A stretch of DNA of 64,000 nt, from IMG/VR virus record IMGVR_UViG_3300049830_000285, positions 113,709-177,708 of that record; one strand, 5' to 3'. This DNA is from a virus. Shown in pieces: positions 24,617 to 63,760 of the stretch (position 1 is its first letter; each line of letters opens with the position of its first letter). The notes beneath the pieces are model-generated. The model was not told the DNA's origin. It made no database searches and saw only the letters and a program-made list of their open reading frames with translations. A program made the translations under genes and the position numbers.

Positions 24617-24691
24617 TGGTGGGCCACGAAGGAATCGAACCTTGTCCTACACCGTGTCGAGGTATTGTACTACCATTATACGTCGCAGCCC
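24617..24691 (-). tRNA. tRNA-Val(GAC)
   Basis: Cloverleaf, loop UC-GAC-AC, encoded CCA. Confidence 0.85.
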
Positions 24692-24696
24692 GTTGT

Positions 24697-25014
24697 TTAT
24701 CGCGATTTAAAATATTTGTTTTGCGGCATATACCAGAAATCTGGACTGTTAAATTCTTCGTAATATGCCCACACTTCGCCCATAAAGATATCAGTAATAC
24801 CTTGGTCAATACATTCTTTCATAGAGTGTACGCTTAAAACATTTGATATTCTGCCTTGTGAATCAACTCCGAATGCTATCCATCGTGCTTCATCTGACGA
24901 CCTAAAGTTGTATGTCTTAATGACATCGGCTTCAAAGCCTTTTTCTTTTAGTAAAGCTGCTAATCGTGCAGTAAGTGTGTTCGGCTTTACATTCGCCACA
25001 ATCATTTTAGCCAT
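24697..25014 (-). CDS. Hypothetical protein
   Basis: 105-aa ORF. Confidence 0.5.
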   Translation of the reverse strand: MAKMIVANVKPNTLTARLAALLKEKGFEADVIKTYNFRSSDEARWIAFGVDSQGRISNVLSVHSMKECIDQGITDIFMGEVWAYYEEFNSPDFWYMPQNKYFKSR

Positions 25015-25036
25015 TGGTTGCTACTCACTCTTGATG

Positions 25037-25546
25037 TTAATATGATGATTTTAGTTCCACAACTAAATGAGGGTAAAGAATGGCGAGCGAAACGTTGTCC
25101 TCTCCATCGTGATTTCTCACTCCCAAAAACTGTGCTTGTGGCAATATAAATTGTGAATTTTCCGGGCATTCATCTGAAGTTAGAACTTCCATTCCAAGAC
25201 GATGAGCTTTGCGCTCCGACGATGGATGACTTATTAAGTATACGCAATCCATATAATTTTCTAATATACACATTGCGCGATTAATCTCAGAACTCACATT
25301 CGAAGGATTGATTTCAATAGCCTTTTGCAACATTTTAATTAAGGCAGCATCTTCATTTTCAATCTCGTCTTGCCATGTTATAAATTCCTCAGCATGTATA
25401 ACCTTCGCCTCTCCATCGCGCCAAATAACGGCACATTGTTGCTCAACACCCTCTGGTGGTTCAATACTATATCTCGTGTTACAATACAGGTCATCAAACA
25501 AAACTTTTTTGGTTAATTCATTCATGCCTTTATTATACACAATCAC
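25037..25546 (-). CDS. Capsid-like paralog fragment (C-terminal half-like)
   Basis: YLISHPS..EVLTSDECPENSQFILPQAQFLGV parallels 54754-55986. Confidence 0.4.
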   Translation of the reverse strand: MIVYNKGMNELTKKVLFDDLYCNTRYSIEPPEGVEQQCAVIWRDGEAKVIHAEEFITWQDEIENEDAALIKMLQKAIEINPSNVSSEINRAMCILENYMDCVYLISHPSSERKAHRLGMEVLTSDECPENSQFILPQAQFLGVRNHDGEDNVSLAILYPHLVVELKSSY

Positions 25547-25555
25547 TGATTATAA

Positions 25556-25631
25556 TGGTACTCAGAACAGGAGTCGAACCTGCATAAAACTCCTTGTAAC
25601 GAAGCTGTTACTGCCTTTGCACTATCTGAGC
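25556..25631 (-). tRNA. tRNA-Val(TAC)
   Basis: Cloverleaf, loop GU-UAC-AA (unusual G32), CCA. Confidence 0.75.
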
Positions 25632-25632
25632 A

Positions 25633-25953
25633 TTAATTGAAGGCTAAATCGCTGAGTATCTTGTCGTAGATACCACCCATTCCTTCTTCCTGTTGCTGAA
25701 CAAGTTTGACAATATCTCGAATAACTTCTGAAGTGTTGGAGTTGATGTCAATATGTATTCTGTTTTTTTCATTGCTTAATTCCAAAAAATAACAACCCTC
25801 GTTGCCAACTACTACCTTCCATTCTCCAACAAATGTTTGCCATCTGTCGTATCCTCGGTTAATCCGAGTCCATTTGAGTTTATTGTCACAAGTTTTCTTT
25901 TCGATTTCTTCGGCAATTTTCATTTGCTTATGGCTGTATTCTGTCATAAGCAT
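25633..25953 (-). CDS. Hypothetical protein
   Basis: ORF between tRNAs. Confidence 0.5.
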   Translation of the reverse strand: MLMTEYSHKQMKIAEEIEKKTCDNKLKWTRINRGYDRWQTFVGEWKVVVGNEGCYFLELSNEKNRIHIDINSNTSEVIRDIVKLVQQQEEGMGGIYDKILSDLAFN

Positions 25954-25969
25954 CAGTTTACCATAAAAA

Positions 25970-26055
25970 TGGTCGGCATGGCAGGACTCGAACCTACGTG
26001 AACTTTCGCTTCCATCTTATCAGGATGGCACTCTACCAATCTGAGTTACACGCCG
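25970..26055 (-). tRNA. tRNA-Ile(GAT) with long variable arm
   Basis: CCAUC-CUGAUAA-GAUGG anticodon arm; 14-nt variable region AAGCGAAAGUUCAC; CCA. Confidence 0.85.
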
Positions 26056-26058
26056 AAA

Positions 26059-26544
26059 TTATTCTGTTTTCAAGCATTGAGCTATTTGCTTGATTAAGGT
26101 GTCAGAAGTGACATAGGAGGCTAAACTGCAATAAAGAGAAGAAGACTGAAGTTCAGCAATGTAAGAATTAACCTTGGCAACAAGTTCTTCAATGGCTTTC
26201 TTCTCAGTGCTATTTTTGTATTTGTAAGCCTTAATGATATCTAGTTTTTGTGTGAAAAATTCTATGTCAAACGTAGCATCTACATTACCAATGTCAATAA
26301 GCTTTACTCCCTCAAATTGCTGGATGATATTTCGCTCATCTGGAGTCGTTGAACAAGTTACCATTGGGCCTTCAATAAAAACGTGCATGCCCATATAATC
26401 ATAAATTTGCACTTGATGCAATCGCGCAAACATGAGCGACATGTAGTCTTCATCTTCCAAAAAGATTTTGGTGTATTGGACTTCAGTTTTCTCTTCACCT
26501 AAGGTTCGAAAAGAACGACATGTGCTATGGCTAATCATAGTCAC
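26059..26544 (-). CDS. Hypothetical protein
   Basis: 161-aa ORF. Confidence 0.5.
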   Translation of the reverse strand: MTMISHSTCRSFRTLGEEKTEVQYTKIFLEDEDYMSLMFARLHQVQIYDYMGMHVFIEGPMVTCSTTPDERNIIQQFEGVKLIDIGNVDATFDIEFFTQKLDIIKAYKYKNSTEKKAIEELVAKVNSYIAELQSSSLYCSLASYVTSDTLIKQIAQCLKTE

Positions 26545-26586
26545 AGCATACCTGAAAGTTGTTGCCGTTTTTAGGCGGCAACAATC

Positions 26587-26982
26587 TCATTTTCGTCGCT
26601 CGAAGCTCACCTCAACAGAATAGTATGTATCCAGATTAGCGCACCAACGAATCACGAGTGACCCCTTGAATGTACCAATACGGTAAAACGTCCACAGCAA
26701 ATCTGAATCGTCTTCCGAAGAAGATTCATCAGCATATGCGACTGGGGCTCCGACGAGACTTTGTGGGTCTCCGCAGATATCCTCAATGTAAACGAGTTCA
26801 CAGCAATCCTGCCCGTGATACATGATGTAAGACTCCGTTTCGTCTACAGTAAACACGATTTCGTCGCGATTTACCTTGACATCACTTAATATCTTTCCAA
26901 CAAGGTCACTGAACTTTGGCGATGGTTGTCTAGTTGTTTGTATGTTTGTCATATCAATGTCGCGCAACAAACTATAGAACAA
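26587..26982 (-). CDS. Conserved phage hypothetical protein
   Basis: YHGQDCCELVYIEDICGD motif. Confidence 0.65.
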   Translation of the reverse strand: MFYSLLRDIDMTNIQTTRQPSPKFSDLVGKILSDVKVNRDEIVFTVDETESYIMYHGQDCCELVYIEDICGDPQSLVGAPVAYADESSSEDDSDLLWTFYRIGTFKGSLVIRWCANLDTYYSVEVSFERRK

Positions 26983-27080
26983 TTCTAATATACTTCAAAA
27001 ACCACCACTTATAAGCTTTTTTTGATTATTTTTTAAAAAGGCCTGAATTTCCGTGTCTCCATTGTCGTTTTATATATGTA

Positions 27081-27338
27081 ATGAAAAACTTACGTAACAT
27101 TAACCTCTCGCCAAAAACACAATCCGAAGTCTACGCTTGGATGACTTGCGCAATTCTCGCGCACACTCGAATGGGCGTTAGTTTTACTCCCAAGGGAGCG
27201 AAACTCGCAAAGGAGATTAAAATGGCTCCTGAAGCATTTTTAAAGGTAGTGGATGAGCTACAGAAAGAGAATGCGTTCGGCTTCACTGAGTTAACAAGCG
27301 AAGAAGCGGAAGAGCTTAAACGTTGGGTGAAAGAATAA
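27081..27338 (+). CDS. Hypothetical protein
   Basis: 85-aa ORF. Confidence 0.5.
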   Translation: MKNLRNINLSPKTQSEVYAWMTCAILAHTRMGVSFTPKGAKLAKEIKMAPEAFLKVVDELQKENAFGFTELTSEEAEELKRWVKE

Positions 27339-27356
27339 CATCATGTTGAAAAAATT

Positions 27357-27435
27357 TGGTGGAGGATACGGGATTCCAACCCGTCTGTTTTCTTCCTTGC
27401 AAAAGAAGCGACCACCGCCAGTAGTCCTATCCCCC
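27357..27435 (-). tRNA. tRNA-Ala(TGC)
   Basis: G3.U70 pair, loop UU-UGC-AA, T-loop UUGGAAU, CCA. Confidence 0.8.
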
Positions 27436-27792
27436 ATATTGTGACGTTGTTTCGTATGAATCATCAACGTCAAGTTTGTCATCCACTTTTGTGGATTTGT
27501 GAATGTCTCGCCACCCATAAGCGCGTGTCCTGGGATTGCACAATCCGCAATCCCAGGAACATCCAACAAATTTCTTTTTGCCCTCGTGTCTCCACTTGCC
27601 TTCGTTTCTGTAAAGGCGACGAAAGCATTTGGTGACAAATTCGTGGTTAGTTGGAACCAAGATGTAGCCTCTCTCTGGATGGCGAACATACATCTCAGTT
27701 TCCTGAGATTCTTCTGCCCACCAACTACGATTCCAAATACGTCGTTTAATTAACGCAGTTTTTGCTCTGCGTTCAGCTCTTGTGTGTTTCAT
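27427..27792 (-). CDS. Hypothetical basic protein
   Basis: 121-aa ORF with CSWDCGLC; overlaps the tRNA 5' end. Confidence 0.5.
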   Translation of the reverse strand: MKHTRAERRAKTALIKRRIWNRSWWAEESQETEMYVRHPERGYILVPTNHEFVTKCFRRLYRNEGKWRHEGKKKFVGCSWDCGLCNPRTRAYGWRDIHKSTKVDDKLDVDDSYETTSQYGG

Positions 27793-27902
27793 TATCCTGT
27801 CTTAGATGGCTATGCCGTCTAATACACAGAATGTTTTCCAAAGTATTTCATGAGTTCATTATACTACGAAATACTCACGTTGAGGAAATTTGGTGGAGGA
27901 GG

Positions 27903-28619
27903 TTATCTTAATCTCGATTTTCGACCATTGCCTTTATTTAAAATACCGTATGTTGGAGTTAACGCATGACAATTTGGGCAAATCAATTCTAGGTTTATTT
28001 CTTTAGAATCTGTTGAATCGCCGTTAATATGATTTACTTGTAACGGAATCTTTTTAGTAATAGGATGCTTTTTTGACCATCCACATTGTGAACATTGCGC
28101 TCGATATTTTTCATGTAAAAACCTTCTAATATGATTGCTTATTCCCCCGCTTTTAGTGTTTCCAGAAATTTCACCTTGCTGCCATTTCGCAATGTAATTT
28201 TCATATTGTAAATTTTTTCGATGAATAGTACAATATTTTGAACCTGTAGTTTTAACATTGCAAATACAACAATGATATGTTCGCTTAATAGCTTGTCCGT
28301 AGAAAGATGGTTTAATGTTTGGCAGCCCATCAATAGATTGCGCCTTGTCTTTACATATTCTAGAACAAAAGTGAAGTCCTGATTTGCTTCTTGAAAATTT
28401 GCTTTTTGACCGCGTTATTGTTTGATTACACCAAGCACAAAATTTTTCAATATTAGTGATTAAATTGACATGCTTTTGTCGGCACTCACGAGAGCAAAAA
28501 TGAGATGGATGTTTGTTAATCTCTTTGTTTAATTTAAGAAAAGTTTTTTCACAACCAGTACATGTGACTTCTGAAGCTGAGCGATTTTTACCGTAACTAT
28601 CTTTGATATATAGGTTCAT
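27903..28619 (-). CDS. HNH homing endonuclease with N-terminal Cys/Zn repeats
   Basis: CxxC and HFCSRxC repeats; LQVNHING..NLELICPNCH. Confidence 0.88.
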   Translation of the reverse strand: MNLYIKDSYGKNRSASEVTCTGCEKTFLKLNKEINKHPSHFCSRECRQKHVNLITNIEKFCAWCNQTITRSKSKFSRSKSGLHFCSRICKDKAQSIDGLPNIKPSFYGQAIKRTYHCCICNVKTTGSKYCTIHRKNLQYENYIAKWQQGEISGNTKSGGISNHIRRFLHEKYRAQCSQCGWSKKHPITKKIPLQVNHINGDSTDSKEINLELICPNCHALTPTYGILNKGNGRKSRLR

Positions 28620-28672
28620 AATATAGCATTTAATCCGTTGGTGGAGTATACCTTCTTTGCGCTGTGTAAAAA

Positions 28673-28748
28673 TGGTGGAGATAGCGAGATTTGAACTCGC
28701 AACCTATTCAATGCCATTGAATTGCTCTCCCAATTGAGCTATATCCCC
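28673..28748 (-). tRNA. tRNA-Ala(GGC)
   Basis: Cloverleaf, G3.U70, loop AU-GGC-AU, CCA. Confidence 0.92.
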
Positions 28749-28759
28749 AGTTGATATCT

Positions 28760-28833
28760 TGGTCGGCATACTAAGAATCGAACTTAGATAAATCGGTTAT
28801 CAGCCGAACCCTCTACCATTGAGGTATATGCCG
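28760..28833 (-). tRNA. tRNA-Ile(GAT)
   Basis: Loop CU-GAU-AA, CCA. Confidence 0.85.
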
Positions 28834-28837
28834 AGGT

Positions 28838-28911
28838 TGGTAGGCAGTGAAGGAATCAAACCTTCACTTCTCCCTAATCAGGGGAGCAGTCTATCATTAA
28901 CTTAACCGCCC
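28838..28911 (-). tRNA. tRNA-Ile(GAT), U37 variant
   Basis: CUCCC-CUGAUUA-GGGAG, CCA. Confidence 0.8.
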
Positions 28912-28926
28912 ATGTGTGGAATAAAT

Positions 28927-29005
28927 TGGTGGAGGGCACGAGACTCGAACTCGTCTGCTGTCCATATTGCAAGTATGGCAATCACACCAGGCAATTCCGC
29001 CCCCC
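28927..29005 (-). tRNA. tRNA-Ala(TGC)
   Basis: G3.U70, CCAUA-CUUGCAA-UAUGG, CCA. Confidence 0.85.
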
Positions 29006-29022
29006 ATGTGTGATTAAAATTG

Positions 29023-29097
29023 TGGTGGGCGATGAGGGATTCGAACCCCCGACCAATAGAATGTAAATCTACTGCGCTTCCGCTGCGCCAATCGCCC
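29023..29097 (-). tRNA. tRNA-Val(TAC)
   Basis: Cloverleaf, loop UU-UAC-AU, CCA; 5' end overlaps the HNH C-terminus. Confidence 0.88.
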
Positions 29098-29437
29098 TTG
29101 GTATTTCACACAATCCAGCGTGAATTTTAGCATGACAGTTTCTACATACCAAAACGCATTTATCCATTTCAGCTTGTAGTCTTTTCAGTGAAACCATCTT
29201 TCTGACCAATGTTGCTACACAATCATCTTTGTCTTTAAGATGGTGAAAATCTAAACATACGATTTCTGATTCTCCACAACAAACACAAGGATTTTTTTGC
29301 TTCCATGCGTCTACATGGGCTTTATTTCTTTCTCGCTTACCCTGTCTATGGAATTTAGCATTTTCTTTTTTTCGTGCAGCATTTACTGGATTAGCATACC
29401 AATTTTGGTGATAGATTTTTCTTTCTTCGGCGTTCAT
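29069..29437 (-). CDS. HNH endonuclease (tRNA-associated)
   Basis: CVCCG..CLDFHH..EMDKCVLVCRNCHAKIH. Confidence 0.85.
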   Translation of the reverse strand: MNAEERKIYHQNWYANPVNAARKKENAKFHRQGKRERNKAHVDAWKQKNPCVCCGESEIVCLDFHHLKDKDDCVATLVRKMVSLKRLQAEMDKCVLVCRNCHAKIHAGLCEIPRAIGAAEAQ

Positions 29438-29475
29438 AGGTGTTTATTCTTATACATATGTTTACACACCTCTTT

Positions 29476-29517
29476 TCTCCGTGTAAAAGAGTAACTCTAC
29501 CGCTGAGTTAATCGCCC
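29476..29517 (-). pseudogene. Orphan 5' fragment of a tRNA-Val(TAC)
   Basis: GGGCGAUU acceptor strand, D arm ACUC/GAGU, anticodon loop UU-UAC-AC; no T arm follows. Confidence 0.75.
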
Positions 29518-29604
29518 GTAAAAGACGGAAAGCGAAAACCATATTGCCTATCGAACCCAACTTAATGGGATTAGAAGTAATGACTTTCATAGCCGCCTAA
29601 ATCT

Positions 29605-29679
29605 TGGTATCCGCACTGAGACTTGAACTCAGAACCTTTCGCTAATCAGGCAAACGCGCTACCATTGCGCCATACGGAT
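29605..29679 (-). tRNA. tRNA-Ile(GAT), U37 variant
   Basis: UUUGC-CUGAUUA-GCGAA, CCA. Confidence 0.85.
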
Positions 29680-29697
29680 ATATCGGTGGATTAAAAT

Positions 29698-29772
29698 TGG
29701 TGGGCAGTGTGAGAATCGAACTCACTTCGTTTCCGTGTAAGAGAAACTCTATTACCAAATTGATAACCGCCC
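29698..29772 (-). tRNA. tRNA-Val(TAC)
   Basis: UUUCU-CUUACAC-GGAAA, CCA. Confidence 0.82.
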
Positions 29773-29924
29773 AGATTGACTAGTCGCCCGAGAAAGATTA
29801 AAATATATACGATTGTTCTGTCACGCAGTATTTTTGCATATATTTTAATCAAAATGCCAGATTAGAAAGTATGGTGTTTTACCCTTTTCTTGGGAAATAT
29901 GCCATGTTTTTTAATCTGAGAAAA

Positions 29925-29999
29925 TGGTACCAACGGGGGGAATCGAACCCCGCCCCCGAGAAGGTATGAACTTCTGGCCCTTTGCCCAAGGTCGTTGGC
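29925..29999 (-). tRNA. tRNA-CAT (Met or Ile2), atypical D arm
   Basis: AGAAG-UUCAUAC-CUUCU, normal T arm, CCA. Confidence 0.7.
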
Positions 30000-30057
30000 A
30001 TGTATTGATTTATCATGGGATGGAAGTTTGGGTACTTCCATCCCTCGCAATCAGCTC

Positions 30058-30077
30058 TATTCGGTTTTCAAAGTGCA
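30058..30077 (-). promoter_or_regulatory. boxA-like antitermination element
   Basis: UGCACUUUGAAAACCGAAUA between the attenuator and the first tRNA. Confidence 0.6.
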
Positions 30078-30106
30078 TTGTGAACTTTCGTTCGGTGTAT
30101 AAATCT

Positions 30107-30148
30107 AAAAAAAAAGAAGGATTCGGTCTTTCTGACCGAATCCTTCTT
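30107..30148 (-). terminator. Attenuator terminator of the Met/Val/Ile/Ala tRNA operon
   Basis: 15-bp stem AAGAAGGAUUCGGUC/GACCGAAUCCUUCUU followed by a U tract. Confidence 0.9.
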
Positions 30149-30171: not shown

Positions 30172-30249
30172 TTAGGTCAGAACGTCCTCTGCGATAATCG
30201 CAGCGGCTACAACAATTGCCATGACCATAATGTTTCTGTTGTATCTCAT
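30172..30249 (-). CDS. Attenuator leader peptide MRYNRNIMVMAIVVAAAIIAEDVLT (not in the ORF track)
   Basis: 14 consecutive Ile/Met/Val/Ala codons; AAGGA upstream; the stop region pairs with the terminator 5' arm. Confidence 0.85.
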   Translation of the reverse strand: MRYNRNIMVMAIVVAAAIIAEDVLT

Positions 30250-30276: not shown

Positions 30277-30353
30277 TGGGTGCGAGCTGCTGGAATCTAA
30301 CCAACCTACCGGGGTTTATGAGACCTCGCTCGTCAACAGTAGAGTAAGCCGCA
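30277..30353 (-). tRNA. tRNA-Met(CAT)-like, atypical
   Basis: GAGGU-CUCAUAA-ACCCC, bulged acceptor stem, T-loop UUAGAUU, CCA. Confidence 0.6.
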
Positions 30354-30358: not shown

Positions 30359-30400
30359 ATTATGCACTGTCAATATGCATTTGTCAACAACATTTGAGGA
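30359..30400 (-). promoter_or_regulatory. Sigma70-like promoter with upstream TCCTCA
   Basis: TCCTCA-7-TTGACA-17-CATAAT. Confidence 0.8.
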
Positions 30401-31594: not shown

Positions 31595-31670
31595 TGGTGC
31601 GGAGGCAAGATTCGAACTTGCGACCTTTGAGGTATGAACCCAACAAGCTACCAGACTGCTCTACTCCGCA
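31595..31670 (-). tRNA. tRNA-Met(CAT), initiator-like
   Basis: GAGCAGUCUGGUAGCU D arm, GGG in the anticodon stem, CAU; own TTGATA-17-TATAAT promoter. Confidence 0.85.
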
Positions 31671-31719
31671 ATATCATTATACCAACATAATCACCACTTA
31701 TCAACTATTTTGAGAAAAA

Positions 31720-37339: not shown

Positions 37340-38710
37340 TTATTCTTGCACTGGCTTTACATAGGGGAACCAGCTCACCTGTCGAATGTGACTTGCGTCA
37401 GAGAGTGCCATAGCTAATCGGTCAATGCCAATGCCGACGCCAAAAGCTGGCGGCATTCCACAAGCTAAGGCGTATACAAAGTCGTGGTCGATTTGATTAC
37501 CAAGAGCATCAAATTGTGATTGAAATGCCGCGAGTTGAACTTGCGGGTCGTTTTGCTCACAGAATCCATTTGCAATTTCCATACCACTGATATATGCTTC
37601 AAATCTCTCTGCATACTTTCCATCTTGACTTCTAGCTAATGGCGAAATACAAGATGGGTGATGTGTGATAATTGTCGGAGACAAAAGCTTGGGCTCAACA
37701 AAAGACTTCATGCATTCTTCTAGCATTTCTAATGTTTCTGGCTTCGAGAAATCCCACTCATCAATATCATGACCAGCGTGTTCATAGATGGCTTCACGCA
37801 TTGTCATTGTTGTCCAATCGCTTTCATTAATCTTAACTTCAAAATGTTGTGAGGCCGCTTGTACGATTACCTTGAATCGCTCAATTCCTTGTGTGAAGTT
37901 ATCATACGCAGTGTAATACTCCAGAAGAGTAAACTCTGGATTGTGATGTGCGCTGATACCTTCGTTTCGGTATACAGTGCCAATTTCATACACGCGCTCA
38001 AAACCGCCACATAAAAGCTTCTTAAGCTGAATTTCCAATGAAATGCGCAGCTTTACGTCCGCTTCATATGCGTTGTAATGTGTATCGAATGTCTTTGCCT
38101 CTGCTCCGCCCGGAATTTGAAGTAACGTTGGAGTTTGAACTTCGATGAACGATGCAGTGTTGAGAGTTTCGCGAATATTTGTAATCATTCGCGAGCGTTC
38201 AACAAGTCGTTGTCGCAAATCATCATCAATGAGCATCGCCAAGTGTCTATGACGCATTAGAATTTCTGCATCACGCACTTGATTGAATGCTTCACCATCC
38301 TTTTCTTGACCATAAGGAACTGTCACCAGAGCCTTGCTCAAAATATGGAAATTCGATACAAAGATTGACTTTTCTCCAGCAACCGTTGCCTTGTAAACAC
38401 CCTCGAAGTGAACTAAGTCACCTGAGTGAATGTGCTTAACAATCTGCTTCCAGCCCTCGGCGGTAAAGCCTTGTTGAAAAACAACCTGGATGCGTGATAG
38501 CTGTGTTGCATTTGGAGTTTCTGAATACAAAATTGTGGCAAATGTCATACTCCCCATACGTCGAATAGTTAAAATTCGGCCGACGAGTGAAACACTAGTT
38601 CCCTCTTGATAACCACCACGTGGTATCCAGATGTATGGAGTATCCTGTAAATATGGGCGCTGTCCTAACTGGCGCAATTGTTCTAAACTGTCTATTCTAT
38701 CTGTTTGCAT
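37340..38710 (-). CDS. lysS: Lysyl-tRNA synthetase, class II
   Basis: OB-fold GRILTIRRMG, FIEVQTP, YEIGTVYRNEGISAHHNPEFT, ERFE..EIANG, GIGIDRL. Confidence 0.92.
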   Translation of the reverse strand: MQTDRIDSLEQLRQLGQRPYLQDTPYIWIPRGGYQEGTSVSLVGRILTIRRMGSMTFATILYSETPNATQLSRIQVVFQQGFTAEGWKQIVKHIHSGDLVHFEGVYKATVAGEKSIFVSNFHILSKALVTVPYGQEKDGEAFNQVRDAEILMRHRHLAMLIDDDLRQRLVERSRMITNIRETLNTASFIEVQTPTLLQIPGGAEAKTFDTHYNAYEADVKLRISLEIQLKKLLCGGFERVYEIGTVYRNEGISAHHNPEFTLLEYYTAYDNFTQGIERFKVIVQAASQHFEVKINESDWTTMTMREAIYEHAGHDIDEWDFSKPETLEMLEECMKSFVEPKLLSPTIITHHPSCISPLARSQDGKYAERFEAYISGMEIANGFCEQNDPQVQLAAFQSQFDALGNQIDHDFVYALACGMPPAFGVGIGIDRLAMALSDASHIRQVSWFPYVKPVQE

Positions 38711-46942: not shown

Positions 46943-46951
46943 ATATTTTTT

Positions 46952-47025: not shown

Positions 47026-47040
47026 GTATTTCTTTCACAC

Positions 47041-47059: not shown

Positions 47060-47072
47060 GTTTTTAAAGTTT

Positions 47073-48921: not shown

Positions 48922-49653
48922 CTATTCGTCAATCGCCTCATTTTCTGAGGCGATTATGGCTCTTAATCGCCTCACTCTAGCTCTGGCTAATTCTTCAATA
49001 GCGCCTTTCTTAACTGCAAGGGCACGTTTTGAAGGAATCAAGTCGTAATGATGTGTGCGTTTATCTTGGAACCAACACCATTTAGTTTTATTTTTTGTGA
49101 GGGCAATATCCATACAATCCCAAAGACATGTTGCAATTGTGGCAGAGCACTCGGTAGCCTTCTGGATATTCATTTTTTCTGAGCCAATAATAGAATGAAT
49201 GTCCTCCTTTATTTTTTCCGAACAACTCTCTTCTGTGCTTTCCTCCTCCTCCGTTGATGTGGTCAATACACAAAAATTCTTTAGTGGTTTCTCCACAACA
49301 TTGACATTGGTTTCCGTATGCTTTAAGGGCGGTTGCTCTGTAATCGGCTTGTCTTTGTTTGGTTTGTGATAAAAGTGCGCATCGGTTGTCTTGATAGTAA
49401 TTGCTGTTAAATTCTTTGACACAAGTTTTGCATTTTTGTCCAGCGATTCTTGCTCCACCGCATTTTGAGCATATTGGTTTGTGTAGCGCCATTGCTTACA
49501 TATTGTACATGCAAGTGGTGTTTTTAGCCCAATTAAATCAGCCATAGCGTGCAATTCTTCATCAGAATCGGCTGTCATATGACACCAAACCTTCCATCTC
49601 AGTTTAGTGTCATATGTGCGAAGCTCGTCAACATAAACGCTCATAATTAACAA
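48922..49653 (-). CDS. DUF4031-like protein interrupted by a 441-nt in-frame insertion
   Basis: VYVD..WCHMTAD..ELHAMADLIGLK [147-codon insert] WCWFQ..HYDL..RALAVKKGA. Confidence 0.7.
   Translation of the reverse strand: MLIMSVYVDELRTYDTKLRWKVWCHMTADSDEELHAMADLIGLKTPLACTICKQWRYTNQYAQNAVEQESLDKNAKLVSKNLTAITIKTTDAHFYHKPNKDKPITEQPPLKHTETNVNVVEKPLKNFCVLTTSTEEEESTEESCSEKIKEDIHSIIGSEKMNIQKATECSATIATCLWDCMDIALTKNKTKWCWFQDKRTHHYDLIPSKRALAVKKGAIEELARARVRRLRAIIASENEAIDE
49088..49492 (-). CDS. HNH-like endonuclease nested in another frame inside the DUF4031-like gene
   Basis: YGNQCQCCGE..LCIDHING..LCHNCN. Confidence 0.85.
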   Translation of the reverse strand: MALHKPICSKCGGARIAGQKCKTCVKEFNSNYYQDNRCALLSQTKQRQADYRATALKAYGNQCQCCGETTKEFLCIDHINGGGGKHRRELFGKNKGGHSFYYWLRKNEYPEGYRVLCHNCNMSLGLYGYCPHKK

Positions 49654-50324
49654 TACGTTTCTGTTGTGTTCTCGTAACTCTTAATAGAGTCGTGAACTCG
49701 AACAATACCGAAGTCACTTGATTTCACTTTCACCATTCGACCATCTGGGTGGTGCCAAACGACACCCTCGATATTCTCTTTGGTAAGCTCCTCGCGAATC
49801 TCATCGAAAGTTCTTGGAAAGCTCATAAACGAAATATCACCGTGACTTCGCAAAATGTGGTCTGCTAAGTTCTCGGGATTTTTACCAGCACGAGTTCCAA
49901 TTTTAGGGCCACACAACTCGTATGTACCATTTGGATACATACCTGGATTAGCCTCATAAATACCTAAGACAAGTTTGTCATCTGGCAATTTACATGGAAC
50001 CCAGCCAGGTAAGTGACCTGTAATTGGGTCGAAGTCCTGGAGTTGAATAAAGCCCTCTGGTGGTTTACGGTTGTGAACACGCTTTTCACCAGTTTTATTG
50101 TCGATGGTGAATGCTTTAGCGTCATAGCGCTTAAACAATTGTCCATCTTGAATCATGATGGCAATGCCATCCCATTTACGAGTTGCCGTTCCTTCGCCGT
50201 TCTGCACCCACTCAGTACCAGGCGTCACCTGGTTAATCACTAAGCCGTCGTTGCTGTAATCACGCACGAAGAGAGTTGGAATTTTCTTCATTTTACCTTG
50301 TTGTGAATGAAGTACAGCATTCAC
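49647..50324 (-). CDS. Putative ATP-dependent RNA ligase (RLIG1/C12orf29-like family)
   Basis: MKKIPTLF, ATRKWDG motif I, TYELCG, EGVVW..GRMVKVK. Confidence 0.7.
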   Translation of the reverse strand: MNAVLHSQQGKMKKIPTLFVRDYSNDGLVINQVTPGTEWVQNGEGTATRKWDGIAIMIQDGQLFKRYDAKAFTIDNKTGEKRVHNRKPPEGFIQLQDFDPITGHLPGWVPCKLPDDKLVLGIYEANPGMYPNGTYELCGPKIGTRAGKNPENLADHILRSHGDISFMSFPRTFDEIREELTKENIEGVVWHHPDGRMVKVKSSDFGIVRVHDSIKSYENTTETYC

Positions 50325-50361
50325 TCTGTTCGAATCCCGCCTGCACCAAGGTAATTAGTAT

Positions 50362-50448
50362 ACCCTTCAACGGGAGTGTCCTGCCGTTAGACGACTGAAG
50401 CTTGCGCTAAAGCTGGGAATCGAACCCAGGTTACTCCCTCTGAAGAGT
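50362..50448 (-). ncRNA. Circularly permuted tRNA-like RNA (YrlA-like) module 2
   Basis: Order T arm, acceptor-like hairpin capped by GCAA, D arm; ends close as CUCUUCAG-A-GGGAG/CUCCC-G-UUGAAGGG. Confidence 0.65.
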
Positions 50449-50452
50449 TTCT

Positions 50453-50541
50453 ATCCTATAACGGGCTGCTCTAACCACTGAGCTACACCGCCGCGAACGA
50501 CGATGGTTGGATTTGAACCAACGACATACCCTCTATAGGAC
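50453..50541 (-). ncRNA. Circularly permuted tRNA-like RNA (YrlA-like) module 1
   Basis: T arm GUUGG-UUCAAAU-CCAAC, acceptor CAUCGUC/GGCGGUG capped by G-UUCG-C, D arm GCUC/GAGC, closing stem GUCCUAUAG/UUAUAGGAU. Confidence 0.75.
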
Positions 50542-50593
50542 TTCTTTATTCTTCCTCAACTCTATTGTTTTGTCAACCGATTTTGAGGAAAAA

Positions 50594-54753: not shown

Positions 54754-55986
54754 ATGCCAATATCTCCTAAAGAAATCGCTGATAAGCGTATCGAAAACAC
54801 CGTCACAAAGCTTTGTGACCTCATCGACAGAAAGCTTCAAGAATCAGAAGACACTCCTTTTGAATTCACATTCCTAGCTAACACAAGCCCTGAAGCTCAA
54901 AATTCCATTGTAGACATCTACCGTAAAATCGGATGGAGCGCTGCGCTCATCAAGAAAAGTGAAGGAGTGCTATCAACTTTAGTTTTACAACACCCAAATG
55001 ATGCTCTTAAGCAAGCACTTGAGGCTGAAACACCTAAATCAAATTTACTAAGTCCACCAAGCTCAGTTGTTTCATTCATAAATGACCGCCCAGCTCAGTC
55101 GATTAAAGGTAGAGAGGCAAAAGATAGACTCAAGAATCAGTCTATGACAGGCAACGAGGTAAAAGATAAACTCATTGCAGAAGCTTTAAGCTGCGATGAA
55201 GGGCATTTTGCACTGGCAGTAAATATTGCAGAACCAATAAATCATCGGCTAGCAGCAACATCTCCTATGCGAAAATTATTTATAGTAGACAATTTACCAA
55301 ACGATGCAAAGCCTACTTATGACACCAGATTTGACACACATCCCATCTATCATTCTAAGGATGGAACTATAAAAAGTTATGATGAAAATGATGAAAACTG
55401 TCTTGAAGACATTACCGAATTAAAGGCACATGTTGAAATACCAAATGAACGATTGCTTAAAAGACAATTTTATGTCGTAGATGATGCTCAGTGCAGACTA
55501 AGCGATTCACTCGAAAGTCAAGAGGCTTGTGTAATGATGAAACTGTTACAAGCGGCAGCAGTATTTGACCAAACAATTTACACATATGGTGAAACCACTC
55601 AAAGAGCTATTCTGGATTCGATAGGTGAAATTGAATCAGGTGATATGATTGCAGCAAAATTGATTATTCATCCCAAGACATACAGACGAGTTATGTTTCA
55701 TAAGATGTACAGCGGCGATATGGAAGAGGCAACCATGAGAGATGTACTAATGACAGGACTTTATGGACATATATACACATTAGATATTCATGTTAGCACT
55801 CATGTACCTGAAAATGAAATGTTCATTACGCCAATGGCATCATTTCTTGGAGCATATGCATTGCCGAGTAATGTTGAGGTGTTGCCATGTAAAGCAAAGG
55901 ATAAATTGGGATTTCTTGCAAAAATACAATGTTTTCCCGTGATTATGAATCCTCAGTCTGTTCGCAAGATTGTGATTCGATGGTGA
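54754..55986 (+). CDS. Capsid-like paralog with N-terminal extension
   Basis: LIAEAL..EG..ALA..EPI..RKLFIVDNLP..YD; RQFYVVDDAQ; GHIYTLDIHVSTHVPEN resemble a huge-phage major capsid protein (recognised from memory, not searched). Confidence 0.55.
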   Translation: MPISPKEIADKRIENTVTKLCDLIDRKLQESEDTPFEFTFLANTSPEAQNSIVDIYRKIGWSAALIKKSEGVLSTLVLQHPNDALKQALEAETPKSNLLSPPSSVVSFINDRPAQSIKGREAKDRLKNQSMTGNEVKDKLIAEALSCDEGHFALAVNIAEPINHRLAATSPMRKLFIVDNLPNDAKPTYDTRFDTHPIYHSKDGTIKSYDENDENCLEDITELKAHVEIPNERLLKRQFYVVDDAQCRLSDSLESQEACVMMKLLQAAAVFDQTIYTYGETTQRAILDSIGEIESGDMIAAKLIIHPKTYRRVMFHKMYSGDMEEATMRDVLMTGLYGHIYTLDIHVSTHVPENEMFITPMASFLGAYALPSNVEVLPCKAKDKLGFLAKIQCFPVIMNPQSVRKIVIRW

Positions 55987-57851: not shown

Positions 57852-58647
57852 GGTGTTAGTCTACCTTGTTGTGTGCCTTCAAATAAAAACCATCATCTCT
57901 TAGGGGCACTAATTCGTTTGTCATAGGGTCAATTTCAAATCCCATGAGACTCAAAGCCCATCCTTGTTCAGACATATAAGTCAATCCTTTTATGAAAGAT
58001 TCAGATTGCACTCTTTCATGCTCTATGGCTTTGTCAAACACTTCGCGGGTATTTTTCGCTATTCTTGTTCGCACCTGTTCATCAAGTTTAAAGAATGGAT
58101 TCGAGGAATATTTTTCTTGATTATTCATGGTGTTAGTATACCAGGGATTTTGGTGTCACGGACAGGTGTAAACAGCTCATGTGCGATTGCAAATAGGGAA
58201 TATCAACACCTGTTTCCTAAGGTTGTTCTGCTCAATGTGGCAAAATTAGTATACCATTCTCAAGCGATTATGAGGAAAAAATGCTATACTATGCTAATGC
58301 AAATTAAAACACCTCCTGGTAAATATAGATTGATGATGATGTTTGACGACACATGGTGCGATGTTGCTATTTATGACACCAATGAAATGGCTATCGAGCA
58401 AGCCCTCGCCTTGTTGTCACAAAATCCAAGTCATGTATCAATTTATCACATTAATCATGCGAACAAAGATTTAGAATTAACTCGCTATAAAGTAGTGAGC
58501 TTGGATGTTTCAGAAACGGGTAAGCCTGGTAAGGGATTGAAACAGTACGATTATGTAGTTTATCCTAAACTAATACCATTCTCTCTGCGAAATATGTTTA
58601 GTAAATGGTTCACGAAATAATGAAATTTGGCCGGTATTTGGCCGGAT

Positions 58648-59022
58648 TCATATATTCCAAACCATTATTTCGTCCACAACACCAGCATCTGGATGAAATG
58701 CTCGAAGTGTTCGATTAATAGCCTGTTCGTTATTGATATTGGCTGGTACAAATGAAAACCCAAGGTCTGGGTGATGAAATATCAATTTTGGAGATTCATC
58801 ATACTGAACAGTATTTTGCGCTTCTTCCATTGCCTCTTCTTTCGTTTTAAACCATCTTGGTTGAAAACGAGCGCAATCTTCTTTAAATCCCCATTGAGTC
58901 ATTCCAGCCGTTTTTGTGTAATATGGACAATCAAAAACGCTTTTTTCCTCTCTGTGTGGAATTTCTACCTTAACTTTGACGCCTTTCTTAGTGGGCTTAA
59001 CAGTAACTTTAGTTTCACTCAT
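58648..59022 (-). CDS. Hypothetical protein
   Basis: 124-aa ORF. Confidence 0.5.
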   Translation of the reverse strand: MSETKVTVKPTKKGVKVKVEIPHREEKSVFDCPYYTKTAGMTQWGFKEDCARFQPRWFKTKEEAMEEAQNTVQYDESPKLIFHHPDLGFSFVPANINNEQAINRTLRAFHPDAGVVDEIMVWNI

Positions 59023-59444
59023 GTCTTACTATACCTGATTAAAAATCTGGAGCATCAAAATCATCCCACCAATGTAGTTTCAGCTTCAGCTTGTGCTGCT
59101 TCAGCTTCTTTAAGCTGCTCTTGAGCCAATCGTCTGCATTCAGCCACGCCCTCGGCAAGATGCCCGTAGCGCTCTCTCCAAATAGTTGTGGAAGAATCAC
59201 AAATTTTTACACGATATTCGTGCTCAAGCTTTTCCATTGTTTTGATAAGTTTTTTGAGTTCTTGCATGATTATTCACCGCTAAATGCCGACCATCCAGCA
59301 TGATATAAGTCTGAAACACATTTTTCATGAAGAAAATCTTTTTGAGCTTGCGTTAATGTGCTTCTCTTTAGGCGACTTTTGATAGCTGATTCTACATCAA
59401 GCATGATTTCATCCCATAATTCGCCAGCATCGAAATATTCTTCT

Positions 59445-59819
59445 TCAGTCATTTTTTTCCTCAGGTAGATGAGTTGCAACAAAATCACCAGCATAAACTT
59501 TCTCACCTGGTAGCGGTAAATCACGTAAACATACTGCCCAAAATCCCCAGTCGCCAGTACCTGCGATGTGGACAGAATATGCTGGATTCTTGAATTTGCT
59601 TTTCTTCATTAATTTCTTAACACATTTGATTATTGTGTCTTTCTTAACTTGAGAATTATCAATAATATCCCAAGAATCAAATGTGTTTTCAGAAGTGCTG
59701 GCATAATGATAAGAAGCTTTGCTGACGCCATTCCATGGTGTGTATGGAATCTTTAATTCATTCTCGATGAACTTCAAATAGTTCTGAAAATGATTTTCGT
59801 AAAAAGCTGCATCTCTCAT
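59445..59819 (-). CDS. Hypothetical protein
   Basis: 124-aa ORF. Confidence 0.5.
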   Translation of the reverse strand: MRDAAFYENHFQNYLKFIENELKIPYTPWNGVSKASYHYASTSENTFDSWDIIDNSQVKKDTIIKCVKKLMKKSKFKNPAYSVHIAGTGDWGFWAVCLRDLPLPGEKVYAGDFVATHLPEEKND

Positions 59820-59907
59820 GCTTATATTCTACCATAAATAGTGTATAACATTTTCACCAACCGTGGCTGCGAGGCGTGAAGGAAGGTAACATTTAAGGAG
59901 AAACGCC

Positions 59908-60348
59908 ATGTTACATAAAACTCGCTGCAAATTCTACGTTTCAGCACAAAACATTTCGTCAACGCAACCAAGTGACTTATATCAGCATCATTTGAACGCG
60001 ACAATTAAGCTTAATGCAGCTTATAGCCCAGACCCAAGTACAGAGAATTACTCTTTCTGGAATGCAACGCCGTCAGGCAGCGCAACTATTAACTTGTACG
60101 GCGAAGAGCAAATCAAACCATACGCTCCGGGAAGTTTCTGGTATATCGACATTTGGGAAGACGCCGAAGGCGATTGGAAAATCACTAAACTTGACACTCA
60201 TGAATACAACATTAATGTTGAGCTAACTGATGGCTCAGCGTGGCAAGGAGATAAAATCGAACTCGCCATCACAAACAAAAATGCTTGGGAAATCTTTGAA
60301 AAAGGAAAGAAATACAAAGCTGAGTTCATCCCCGCTGTGAAAAGCTAA
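59908..60348 (+). CDS. Conserved phage hypothetical protein
   Basis: RCKFYV..ENYSFWNATPSG motif; AAGGAG SD. Confidence 0.65.
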   Translation: MLHKTRCKFYVSAQNISSTQPSDLYQHHLNATIKLNAAYSPDPSTENYSFWNATPSGSATINLYGEEQIKPYAPGSFWYIDIWEDAEGDWKITKLDTHEYNINVELTDGSAWQGDKIELAITNKNAWEIFEKGKKYKAEFIPAVKS

Positions 60349-60358
60349 GCTACTGAAA

Positions 60359-60478
60359 TGTCGCGATAGGTGTTTTTTGTTAATAAATTGACGCCTATTG
60401 CGACATTTATCGCGACATTTGTCGCGATAGAACTAAATTGAGTATCTAAAAAGTGCTATTGCGACACCAATCGCGCCA
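60359..60478. repeat. Array of 10-bp TGTCGCRATA motifs in both orientations
   Basis: Copies at 60359, 60396, 60408, 60420, 60457, plus a degenerate one near 60469. Confidence 0.75.
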
Positions 60479-60871
60479 AAAATACGCGCAAGAATTTATA
60501 TGTATAGGAAATACGCACTTTCTATACATATTTTCTCAACGTGTATACAAAACAGTCATTTCCTATGCATATGAACGACTGGCTTCAATGTATGCCACGG
60601 CGTCATCCTTAGCCAGTTGCTCTATGTTTGCCTTTGTTCCCGCACATGCAATAATCGAGCCGATTCTGCCAAAGATACATAGCCCTTCGTATTTGTTACT
60701 GTCAAATGTTTCATTCACCTGAAGAACAAAGCCATAAATATGTGATTCATCTTCAATGCAATCCATCGTCGTTTGAAGATATGGGTCGATAGTGGGATTG
60801 ATTAAACGGAAGTTCATGACTTGTTAGACACTCGAAGATACTTTTTGAGGATATTCCTCAAACGTTGATGT

Positions 60872-62390: not shown

Positions 62391-63248
62391 TTAAGCTGGC
62401 AAGCTATATTCGATATTATGTAAAATGCGCTCAACATCTTCCTGTTTACCTTTCTGAATGGCCTGGTGTGGCGTTAATCCATCCAGCATCGAATGTTCTT
62501 GATGCATAAACTTATCGGCTGATTCGCCTAAAACTTGCTGAGCGAGTGCGGTAATGGATTCAAGAATATAAGCTCGTTCCCATTTACGGATAGCATTATC
62601 GCTAACGTTATATTGTCTACCAACAGCCGAATATGATGTCTCTTTTATCATTCGTTTAAGTTCAGTGTAAGATGGACGAATCAGCACCTTTCTAAATTTA
62701 CCTTTTGCATATTGTTTCGGACGACATGCTTTCGAACAAATTGTTTTTTTAGTTACACCAGGGTCAAATGTTTTGTTGCATACAGTGCATTGAATAAGGC
62801 GTTGCAATATCTTGATTTTTGTTTTACCTTTTTGTCTATTGGTTTCACTTTCTTCAAGCGCATAAATATGTAAACCAATCTTTAATTCTTCGTGATATTT
62901 TGTTAACACATCGGAATGAAAACCTGAATGACACTCTCTATGGCATCTGCAACATAGTAGAATACATTTATCTAATTCTGCTTTAATTTGTTCCCAAGAG
63001 CGCGTGTTGCCCGATTTACTTAGCCCGAAATCTTTTTTATTGGGGTCTAAATGATGAAAATCTAAAGCTCCAACGCACAAATCGTATGAGCAAACATAGC
63101 ATTTGCCACCTTTATAGCGAATAGATAATGCCTTTAAATCTTTTCTGCGTCTATCAACATTAAATTTTGATTTACACTTATGGCTACAGAATCTACCACC
63201 TTTGTTAACAGGCAAATTGCATAAATGATATTCACAAATCGAACTCAT
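62391..63248 (-). CDS. HNH endonuclease fused to HTH-like and MbcA/ParS (DUF2384)-like C-terminus
   Basis: LDFHH..ELDKCILLCCRCH; YSAVGRQYNVSDNAIRKW; DKFMHQEHSMLDGLTP..NIEYSLPA. Confidence 0.8.
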   Translation of the reverse strand: MSSICEYHLCNLPVNKGGRFCSHKCKSKFNVDRRRKDLKALSIRYKGGKCYVCSYDLCVGALDFHHLDPNKKDFGLSKSGNTRSWEQIKAELDKCILLCCRCHRECHSGFHSDVLTKYHEELKIGLHIYALEESETNRQKGKTKIKILQRLIQCTVCNKTFDPGVTKKTICSKACRPKQYAKGKFRKVLIRPSYTELKRMIKETSYSAVGRQYNVSDNAIRKWERAYILESITALAQQVLGESADKFMHQEHSMLDGLTPHQAIQKGKQEDVERILHNIEYSLPA

Positions 63249-63288
63249 TTATATCTTATACAAGAAGTTACATTCTCGTTAATTAATT

Positions 63289-63364
63289 TGGAGCGGGGTG
63301 TGGGAATCGAACCCACTTAGTTTTGCTTAACAGGCAAACGCAATTCCAAACATGCCAACCCCGC
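63289..63364 (-). tRNA. tRNA-Asn(GTT), non-canonical acceptor (G1-C72, U73)
   Basis: UUUGC-CUGUUAA-GCAAA, CCA. Confidence 0.85.
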
Positions 63365-63386
63365 TTAATTTTATCGTTGTTTAAAA

Positions 63387-63462
63387 TGGAGGGTCGCCTG
63401 GGTTCTGACCCCAGCCCTCTCCGCTTAACAGGCGTCCGCAACTACCAGCTCGCTCACGACCC
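63387..63462 (-). tRNA. tRNA-Asn(GTT), non-canonical (U73, T-loop GUCAGAA)
   Basis: Loop CU-GUU-AA, acceptor GGGUCGU/GCGACCC. Confidence 0.7.
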
Positions 63463-63477
63463 ACTTAAAAACTTTGA

Positions 63478-63553
63478 TGGCTCCCCCACCAGGATTCAAA
63501 CCTGGAATCTCTCGGGTAACAGCCGAGCGCGATATCAGTTACGCCACAGAGGA
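63478..63553 (-). tRNA. tRNA-Asn(GTT)
   Basis: U1-A72, G73, CUCGG-CUGUUAC-CCGAG. Confidence 0.88.
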
Positions 63554-63555
63554 AT

Positions 63556-63597
63556 AAAAAAAGAAGAACTACCAGCTTCTCCTGGTAGTTCTTCTTT
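63556..63597 (-). terminator. Attenuator terminator of the Asn tRNA operon
   Basis: 16-bp stem AAAGAAGAACUACCAG/CUGGUAGUUCUUCUUU plus U tract, 3 nt before tRNA-Asn. Confidence 0.9.
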
Positions 63598-63627
63598 AAG
63601 TTTCCTTTTTTTGAAGTGGCGCTTGTG

Positions 63628-63696
63628 TTACTCAGCGCTTCTACCAGTGGCTGGTGAAGTATTAGCGTTATTATTATTGCTGAGAGTGTAAAGCAT
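63628..63696 (-). CDS. Attenuator leader peptide MLYTLSNNNNANTSPATGRSAE (not in the ORF track)
   Basis: 5 Asn codons within 6 positions; contains CUGGUAG complementary to the terminator 5' arm. Confidence 0.85.
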   Translation of the reverse strand: MLYTLSNNNNANTSPATGRSAE

Positions 63697-63717
63697 GATT
63701 GCGTTTCCTATTGACTT

Positions 63718-63760
63718 ATTGTATCCTCTGTGTTATCTTGTTGTCAACTGTTTTTGAGGA
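63718..63760 (-). promoter_or_regulatory. Sigma70-like promoter with upstream TCCTCA
   Basis: TCCTCA-7-TTGACA-18-TACAAT. Confidence 0.75.

Follow-up and report, generated by a model that had tools for sequence, protein, structure and literature searches.

The window analysed here is the final 64 kb (64,000 nucleotides) of the linear 177,708-bp IMG/VR virus record IMGVR_UViG_3300049830_000285, and its source is a phage. All tRNA genes detected in the window with ARAGORN and Rfam lie on the minus strand and are sorted by isotype into three blocks: block 1 with Val, Ile and Ala isotypes behind a degenerate tRNA with the anticodon CAT, block 2 with Gln, Arg and Cys isotypes, and block 3 with Asn only. 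The same three clusters had been described in an earlier reading made from the letters without database searches (the sequence-only reading), and they were found again, with the CAT tRNA at the head of block 1 and the third tRNA-Asn appearing at a relaxed threshold only. That reading had also placed a promoter of the type TCCTCA-N7/8-TTGACA and a small open reading frame (ORF) of 22-36 codons in front of each cluster. Both are present: the promoters are three of only four such sites in the whole record, and the run of codons claimed for each ORF could be read directly at all three places. Each of these units, here called cassettes 1 to 3, is proposed to be composed, in this order, of a promoter, a short leader ORF written in the codons of the downstream tRNAs, an RNA switch and the tRNA genes. 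As judged from the sequence, the phage probably makes a given set of tRNAs only when the codons of that set are decoded slowly.

The tRNA blocks are not uniform. HNH endonuclease genes are interspersed with the tRNA genes of the window, and block 1, taken as a whole (24621-29996), is interspersed with small ORFs in addition to an HNH endonuclease gene. In the same block, Val-GAC was detected by Rfam only, and its anticodon was read by eye. The three Asn-GTT copies of block 3 are located at 63289-63364, 63387-63462 (the copy seen at the relaxed threshold) and 63478-63553. One tRNA of block 2, at 46598-46683 on the minus strand, is atypical: it is 86 nt long, scores 37 bits and has an insertion in the region of the D arm, and its anticodon is uncertain. 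A separate tRNA-Met is found at 31596-31670 (minus strand). Its unit, 31596-31704, comprises a near-consensus promoter and a terminator of its own, with no leader, and is presumably constitutive.

Leader codons and the tRNA blocks downstream

The codon content of each leader corresponds to the block that follows it. Codons 7-20 of leader 1 (30231-30190) are exclusively Ile, Met, Val and Ala codons, and among them are 10 of the 11 codons readable by the anticodons of block 1. In the run of leader 2 (47334-47284), Gln, Arg and Cys account for 11 of 17 codons, and every codon that the block 2 anticodons can read is used (8/8). The Arg codons of this leader are CGN only, with neither AGA nor AGG, which fits the Arg-GCG and Arg-TCG tRNAs of the block. 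The run of leader 3 (63678-63661) reads Asn-Asn-Asn-Asn-Ala-Asn and uses both Asn codons (2/2). An AGGA-type Shine-Dalgarno site lies 7 nt upstream of the start of leader 3, and sites of the same type lie 6-12 nt upstream of the start in all five Asn leaders compared, namely that of the window and those of four relatives.

The probability that these matches arose by chance was assessed by scoring all 1,627 ATG-initiated ORFs of 15-60 codons, in the six frames of the whole record, for the three amino-acid sets. Leader 1 was the unique top ORF for Ile/Val/Ala/Met (14/14; the runner-up had 10), leader 2 was tied at the top for Gln/Arg/Cys (9/12), and leader 3 was again the unique top for Asn (5/6). 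Each top-ranking ORF is located directly upstream of the block with the matching isotypes. With the leaders ranked first, tied first and first in this set, coincidence is unlikely, as had been asserted from the three matches alone.

Relatives were collected as metagenome contigs through homologues in a large protein collection, those of the capsid with 37-48% identity and those of the NAD synthase with 54-75%, and further contigs were added by one DNA pattern scan; one close relative, with a 94% identical NAD synthase, stood outside the DNA comparisons. Other searches contributed little: a DNA search of the phage collection gave tRNA-level matches only, capsid searches of IMG/VR (with the single protein or an alignment) and of the GTDB genomes gave no matches, and a promoter pattern scan of IMG/VR gave isolated chance matches only. 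All three cassettes, together with their isotype blocks, recur in the contigs of the relatives. They contain four further Asn leaders, with Asn codon counts of 4-6; two further Gln/Arg/Cys leaders (contigs L119 and L127), in which the C-terminal core is kept and of which that of L127 has two extra Gln codons; and three further Ile/Val/Ala/Met leaders (L128, L129/L132 and L133). The order of the residues inside the runs drifts among the relatives, and the amino-acid class is constant, so that the conservation of the upstream ORFs expected by the sequence-only reading is borne out for all three leaders. Between the same pairs of genomes, the leader DNA is 72-86% identical, compared with a full-length identity of 63-72% for the capsid and NAD-synthase genes.

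An analogous leader appears, from its sequence, to be present in the cultured Bacillus phage G, which is also the sole match, at 28% identity, of the major head protein of the window (54754-55986) among the cultured-phage collection. The gene in question, gp86 (NC_023719.1, 58381-58515), is annotated as hypothetical and has 44 codons and a strong Shine-Dalgarno site. Its product contains a stretch of 26 residues of which 24 are Cys, Asp, Phe, Tyr, Glu, Thr, Ser or Trp, and the tRNA genes located downstream of gp86 (58584-60679) have precisely these eight isotypes. The binomial tail of this match is 1e-8, and gp86 ranks at the top of 107 small ORFs in 14.7 kb of phage G. Gp86 is separated from the first tRNA by a terminator, an 8-bp hairpin with a T-run. 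A candidate antiterminator is also present, although it is able to form anew behind a ribosome that occupies the stop codon. In the other tRNA region of phage G, the promoters are plain and a leader is absent.

It should be considered whether the leaders are general sensors of translation speed, of the kind known from bmrB or the whiB7 upstream ORF. Any slowing of the ribosome, whether by shut-off of the host, by antibiotics or by a shortage of ribosomes, would then open the blocks, and the codon match would be secondary or a matter of local codon bias. The pairing between the end of the ORF and an arm of the terminator would indeed react to any slow ribosome, and bmrB is a case of such attenuation, sensitive to the codons chosen, that does not belong to an amino-acid operon (PMC4191407). 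However, a general sensor would need none of the features described above: three leaders in one genome, each at the genome-wide extreme for the amino-acid set of its own block; an amino-acid class that is kept in relatives despite the drift in residue order; Arg codons confined to the box read by the Arg tRNAs of the phage; and the match of phage G gp86 to eight isotypes. This explanation therefore seems improbable, and isotype-specific sensing is preferred.

Features of the three cassettes, with positions in the window; L numbers denote contigs of relatives
Feature	Position	Strand	Details
Promoter, cassette 1	30359-30400	minus	TCCTCA 30400-30395; TTGACA (-35) 30387-30382; end of -10 at 30359; kept in L128, L133
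tRNA-like element (degenerate, CAT)	30277-30353	minus	between promoter 1 and leader ORF 1
Leader ORF 1	30172-30249	minus	25 codons and stop; homologous ORFs in L128, L129/L132, L133
In-ORF hairpin, leader 1	30186-30206	minus	inside the codon run; pause-like
Antiterminator 1, 5' strand	30175-30182	minus	TTCTGACC, final codons of the ORF; partner GGTCAGAA at 30137-30130
Intrinsic terminator 1	30105-30148	minus	15-bp stem 30148-30114; 5-nt loop; T9 tract
Degenerate CAT tRNA heading block 1	29925-29996	minus	relaxed threshold only
tRNA block 1, core	24621-29772	minus	Val-TAC x3, Val-GAC, Ile-GAT x4, Ala-TGC x2, Ala-GGC
Promoter, cassette 2	47446-47489	minus	TCCTCA 47489-47484; TTGACA 47475-47470; end of -10 at 47446; kept in L119, L127
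Leader ORF 2	47281-47391	minus	36 codons; in-frame ATG at 47379 conserved in relatives
Alternative helices D, A, C	47185-47301	minus	conserved; T-tract after none
tRNA remnant	47152-47197	minus	acceptor-like stem and CCA; 5' half sequestered by hairpin C
tRNA block 2, core	46504-47148	minus	Gln-TTG x2, Gln-CTG, Arg-GCG, Arg-TCG, Cys, one atypical tRNA
Lone tRNA-Cys of block 2	43061-43137	minus	further downstream; brings Cys-GCA to x2
Promoter, cassette 3	63718-63760	minus	TCCTCA 63760-63755; TTGACA 63747-63742; -10 63723-63718; kept in L119, L122, L126, L127
Leader ORF 3	63628-63696	minus	22 codons and stop
Hairpin 1:2, leader 3	63638-63659	minus	region 1 63659-63651; region 2 63647-63638
Intrinsic terminator 3	63553-63597	minus	16-bp stem 63597-63560; 6-nt loop; T-tract
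tRNA block 3	63289-63553	minus	tRNA-Asn (GTT) x3

RNA pairings and promoters of the cassettes

In cassettes 1 and 3 the leader is followed by an intrinsic terminator, and these two terminators are the strongest terminator-like hairpins of their regions. In both cassettes the end of the ORF can pair with the terminator. In cassette 1, the partner of the final ORF codons, GGTCAGAA, covers the tip of the 5' arm of the terminator together with part of its loop. In cassette 3, region 2 of the 1:2 hairpin (63647-63641, codons 17-19) can pair alternatively with 63588-63582 in the 5' arm of the terminator, which constitutes the antiterminator. The 5' half of the 1:2 hairpin begins one base past the last Asn codon. 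The T-tract of terminator 3 abuts the 5' end (63553) of the first tRNA-Asn, so that this tRNA would be made only by read-through of the terminator.

The dependence of these pairings on the ribosome was examined by folding transcripts cut just before the 3' arm of the terminator while a 28-nt ribosome footprint was moved along them codon by codon. Antiterminator 1 was present with the A site on codons 2-20 and was lost at codons 21-26. Antiterminator 3 was present with the A site on codons 2-13, the Asn run included, and was lost from codon 14 to the stop. In each of the 8 lineage tests, the antiterminator duplexes were more stable than those of shuffled sequences, and shuffles of equal or greater stability made up a fraction of 0 to 0.052; for antiterminator 1, the duplex energy was -14 to -20 kcal/mol.

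The comparison of relatives supports the terminator stems and the hairpins inside the ORFs. When the in-ORF hairpin and the terminator of leader 1 were taken together in four lineages, 97.7% of the cells were paired and 10 of 22 pairs were changed on both sides, a value reached by none of 500 shuffles. Terminator 1 accounts for 8 such pairs among the 15 of its stem, and the in-ORF hairpin for 2 of its 7, with 100% of the cells paired. As for antiterminator 1, 7 of 8 pairs are constant, and the remaining one is unpaired in a single lineage. These pair counts mean that the segment serving two alternative helices is nearly frozen and that the rest of the stem drifts by compensation. For the Asn terminators, the stem pairs were counted from the tip of the hairpin, as the MAFFT/RNAalifold alignment misplaced them. 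No change is seen in the four pairs at the tip (CCAG with CTGG), and positions 6-13 vary yet stay paired. In the 1:2 hairpin of leader 3, the window and L126 differ by a compensatory change, of which one side is synonymous and the other non-synonymous. Because this change is partly non-synonymous, selection seems to act on the RNA and not on the peptide.

Two further elements flank leader 1. The homologue of the degenerate tRNA-like element upstream of it is a bona fide tRNA-Met in L129/L132 (L129, 7733-7809). Given this tRNA-Met-like element at the start of the 5' leader, the leader 1 mRNA may be released by tRNA processing enzymes. Downstream, at 30017-30075 on the minus strand, a conserved motif is followed by an 11-bp hairpin (30044-30017), for which apparent covariation was noted by eye among three lineages.

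The topology of cassette 2 is the same as that of cassettes 1 and 3, in that the end of the ORF pairs with the 5' arm of a downstream hairpin. Helix D is formed between 47301-47283, which corresponds to the last seven codons of leader 2, and a downstream segment at about 47225-47203. Stem A is formed between 47278-47270 and 47240-47232, and hairpin C, of 16 bp, between 47230-47215 and 47202-47185; mixed sequence follows the latter. The downstream segment of helix D doubles as the 5' arm of hairpin C, whose 3' arm in turn is provided by the 5' acceptor and D strand of the first tRNA or tRNA remnant. The homologue of the remnant is a full tRNA-Gln in L119 and a shortened remnant, as in the window, in L127. 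In both of these relatives, hairpin C decreases from about 14-15 to about 0.5-8 expected pairs with the ribosome on codons 18-26, and it is fully formed with the ribosome on the last codons or the stop. Stem A has covarying pairs among three lineages. The last 13 codons of leader 2 differ from those of L119 by one synonymous change, and the sensor is the best-conserved part of this cassette.

The four TCCTCA-N7/8-TTGACA sites of the record are all on the minus strand. Those at 30400, 47489 and 63760 precede one leader each, and in consensus scans the three leader promoters have 11 of 12 hexamer matches each. The fourth, at 50589, has no leader ORF, and this promoter of the same type drives a leaderless unit (50330-50589, minus strand).

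The leaderless unit contains tRNA-like fragments and, at 50437-50549, a weak Rfam match to YrlA, a Y-RNA-like family, which at 35.7 bits does not reach the gathering score. Downstream of the unit lie genes for an RNA-ligase-like protein and a DUF4031 protein (ORFs 49647-50324 and 48922-49653, minus strand), and the whole may represent a module for RNA repair. In the record, 22 copies of the box TCCTCAAA are present, against about 7 expected (for example at window positions 39069, 33569, 48631 and 40756, minus strand). The box is usually found at the place of the -35 element; a TATAAT-like hexamer follows after about 17 nt and an ATG 5-7 nt past the hexamer, which suggests a phage-specific class of promoter that makes leaderless mRNAs. 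In the tRNA cassettes, the box is placed further upstream of a consensus -35 element. Directly behind another such box, outside the window at genome position 43328-43402 (plus strand), lies a tRNA with the anticodon CTA (amber-suppressor type, 56.6 bits). It was considered as a sign of TAG recoding, and this was rejected: translation with code 11 gave 91% coverage by ORFs of at least 100 codons, and TAG is the terminator codon of 15 of 122 long ORFs.

A class II aminoacyl-tRNA synthetase is encoded at 37340-38710 (minus strand). Its closest match is lysine-tRNA ligase (378 bits, below the curated cut-off); it is kept by the relatives, and no tRNA-Lys is present in this half of the genome. Its assignment as an asparaginyl-tRNA synthetase paired with the Asn block was rejected, as the enzyme is of the lysyl type instead.

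Proposed control of the tRNA blocks and its alternatives

The following mechanism is proposed. The antiterminator of cassettes 1 and 3 would arise through pairing between the 3' part of the ORF and the 5' arm of the terminator. When decoding is fast, the ribosome would arrive at the stop codon and cover the ORF strand; the terminator would then form, and RNA polymerase would halt before the tRNAs. A ribosome waiting in the codon run for a scarce charged tRNA would leave this strand free, the antiterminator would form, and the tRNA block would be transcribed. In cassette 3, the waiting ribosome would also melt the competing 1:2 hairpin. The causes of scarcity put forward by the sequence-only reading, starvation or cleavage of host tRNAs by anticodon nucleases, may be triggers of this response. 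In cassette 2, a hairpin without a T-tract would sequester the 5' half of the first tRNA or of the remnant. Because the products are the very tRNAs being tested, each set of tRNAs would be under a self-limiting control of supply.

The anatomy of the cassettes, the improbability of the codon match by chance, the conservation in relatives and the covariation in the terminator stems and in-ORF hairpins make it likely that this is a functional, isotype-specific and ribosome-operated control of tRNA transcription. From this arrangement we infer that the leaders are translated, that ribosomes stall in them, and that the response has the direction and size proposed. A broader view is that an autonomous, isotype-resolved tRNA homeostat operates in large phages of at least two lineages and would enable them to replace precisely the tRNAs that are lacking in the host or lost to destruction in the course of infection, with cassette 2 as a new platform acting through tRNA folding or processing. 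This broader view is put forward only tentatively and is thought doubtful.

Several observations weigh against the proposed control. The completeness of the whole record is about 47% by CheckV. As for initiation, the Shine-Dalgarno-like site of leader 1 in the window is 11-14 nt from the ATG and is weaker or more distant, and no clear Shine-Dalgarno site was found at the conserved start of leader 2. Within the Gln/Arg/Cys run of leader 2 there are two conserved Phe (or Tyr-Phe) codons (47310-47305, minus strand; likewise in L119 and L127), for which block 2 has no matching tRNA. Antiterminator 1 also forms without any ribosome, so that the untranslated default of cassette 1 would be read-through. 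Its pairs hardly vary, and for this reason they provide no evidence of covariation either way. When cognate and cross-lineage antiterminator pairings were compared, the result was mixed for the Asn leaders, and the cognate pairs of leader 1 were not favoured. The distance from terminator 1 to the next tRNA is about 105 nt, and the stretch 30017-30075 may contain an internal promoter placed before the first tRNA of the block. In the region of leader 2, no hairpin-plus-T-tract terminator was found on the minus strand between 47281 and 47149, and in the window helix D is a weak competitor, hairpin C being dominant at nearly every ribosome position. The sequence-only reading had given all three cassettes the anatomy of ribosome-mediated attenuation. 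This is supported at the level of the sequence for cassettes 1 and 3, which have the terminator, the antiterminator and the codon run, and is not supported in that form for cassette 2, which has the codon run and lacks the T-tract terminator. The folding with a ribosome footprint that it had put forward led to the same division: the antiterminators of cassettes 1 and 3 depend on the position of the ribosome, and in cassette 2 of the window the effect is weak.

The output step of cassette 2 thus does not appear to be classical termination, and could be Rho-dependent termination, processing or tRNA folding. For this cassette alone, the leader might govern the maturation or folding of the downstream RNA. 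A finishing ribosome would free the 5' arm of hairpin C, which would pair with the 5' acceptor and D strand of the first tRNA or the remnant and hinder its folding or processing, and a stall upstream would permit helix D and with it the correct fold of the tRNA; in a variant, Rho-dependent termination would take place in the 130-nt untranslated spacer. The missing T-tract agrees with this possibility. So do the conservation of helices D, A and C with the covarying pairs of stem A, the dependence of hairpin C on the position of the ribosome in L119 and L127, and the finding that, in L119, the 5' half of a real tRNA-Gln serves as the 3' arm of hairpin C. On the other hand, the comparison covers three lineages only, hairpin C is dominant in the window, and the blocking of one tRNA is not obviously a control of the whole block. 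We know of no precedent for control of tRNA folding or processing by a leader. Maturation control is regarded as a possible, though rather unlikely, description of cassette 2.

The stretch behind terminator 1 bears on another possibility, namely that the small ORFs are independent genes with their own terminators, leader 1 encoding for example a hydrophobic peptide, and that the tRNAs are transcribed from separate promoters, the codon match being incidental. The run of leader 1 is hydrophobic and can be read as a short membrane segment, and the stretch includes a conserved element. However, there is no room for a promoter in cassette 3, where the tRNA-Asn abuts the T-tract in the window and follows it closely in four relatives. 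Leaders 2 and 3 are not hydrophobic. Furthermore, the order of the peptide residues drifts, whereas compensatory changes that are in part non-synonymous preserve the RNA pairings, and the triple genome-wide extreme in isotype match would be left unexplained. Independent genes are thus a very improbable explanation, and control of the tRNA blocks by the leaders remains the preferred one.

Comparison with known systems

Known leader families do not account for the cassettes. The Rfam leader families (Thr, His, Leu, Trp and Phe) gave no match at the gathering score, and the sole hit to such a family was a chance-level match of Thr_leader on terminator 3, with E = 2.6 and 23.7 bits where the gathering score is 55. 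No T-box was detected at the gathering threshold in the whole window, nor with E values up to 5 over 24000-64000. The sequence-only reading knew of no earlier description of attenuator-controlled phage tRNA arrays, and our full-text literature searches likewise found no paper on attenuator-controlled tRNA genes. An attenuator-like leader of the tRNA-Phe genes of E. coli was considered as a precedent and rejected, as pheV has a plain promoter directly before the tRNA.

The tRNA arrays of phages are usually viewed as constitutive aids to codon usage or as replacements for tRNAs lost to host shut-off or to anticodon nucleases, and to our knowledge little has been described on the control of their expression. 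If the proposed control is true, an attenuator that has the sensed tRNA as its product would provide direct negative feedback on decoding capacity, and it would explain why the tRNAs of these phages are sorted by isotype into separate transcription units. It would also give a sequence signature for the re-annotation of phage tRNA arrays, namely a small ORF enriched for the downstream isotypes and then a terminator. With phage G gp86, the idea could be tested at the bench in a cultured system.

The multivalent attenuators of enterobacteria sense several amino acids: the ilvGMEDA leader senses Ile, Val and Leu, and the thr leader senses Thr and Ile. The cassettes resemble them in having a short leader with a codon run for multiple amino acids, a terminator before the first gene and an exclusive antiterminator that depends on the ribosome. 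They differ in that the enterobacterial attenuators regulate biosynthetic enzymes, whereas the cassettes are carried by a phage and would regulate the tRNAs themselves. The product of a phage cassette would relieve the stall directly, whereas with ilvGMEDA and thr the supply of charged tRNA is restored indirectly, through the synthesis of the amino acid.

Cassette 3 is also similar to the trp leader. It has four regions, with a 1:2 hairpin, an alternative pairing of regions 2 and 3, and a 3:4 terminator, and a ribosome at the stop codon covers region 2. It has five Asn codons in place of two Trp codons, and its regulated product would be a tRNA. Cassette 1 differs further from trp in lacking the 1:2 competitor, with read-through as the default expected when the leader is untranslated.

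The pheST operon, with its pheM leader, and the T-box systems resemble the cassettes in that the supply of one charged tRNA governs how strongly a part of the decoding machinery is expressed. They control aminoacyl-tRNA synthetases and not tRNA genes, and T-boxes bind uncharged tRNA directly, with no ribosome involved.

The bmrB leader of the Bacillus subtilis bmrBCD operon is an example of ribosome-mediated attenuation through a small leader ORF, with an outcome that depends on the codons chosen; it controls a transporter and reacts generally to antibiotics that inhibit translation (PMC4191407). The isotype-matched codon runs of the phage leaders have no counterpart there. Taken against these systems, the mechanism proposed for the cassettes is a known one, leader-peptide attenuation, and it would differ in its target, the genes of the sensed tRNAs themselves.

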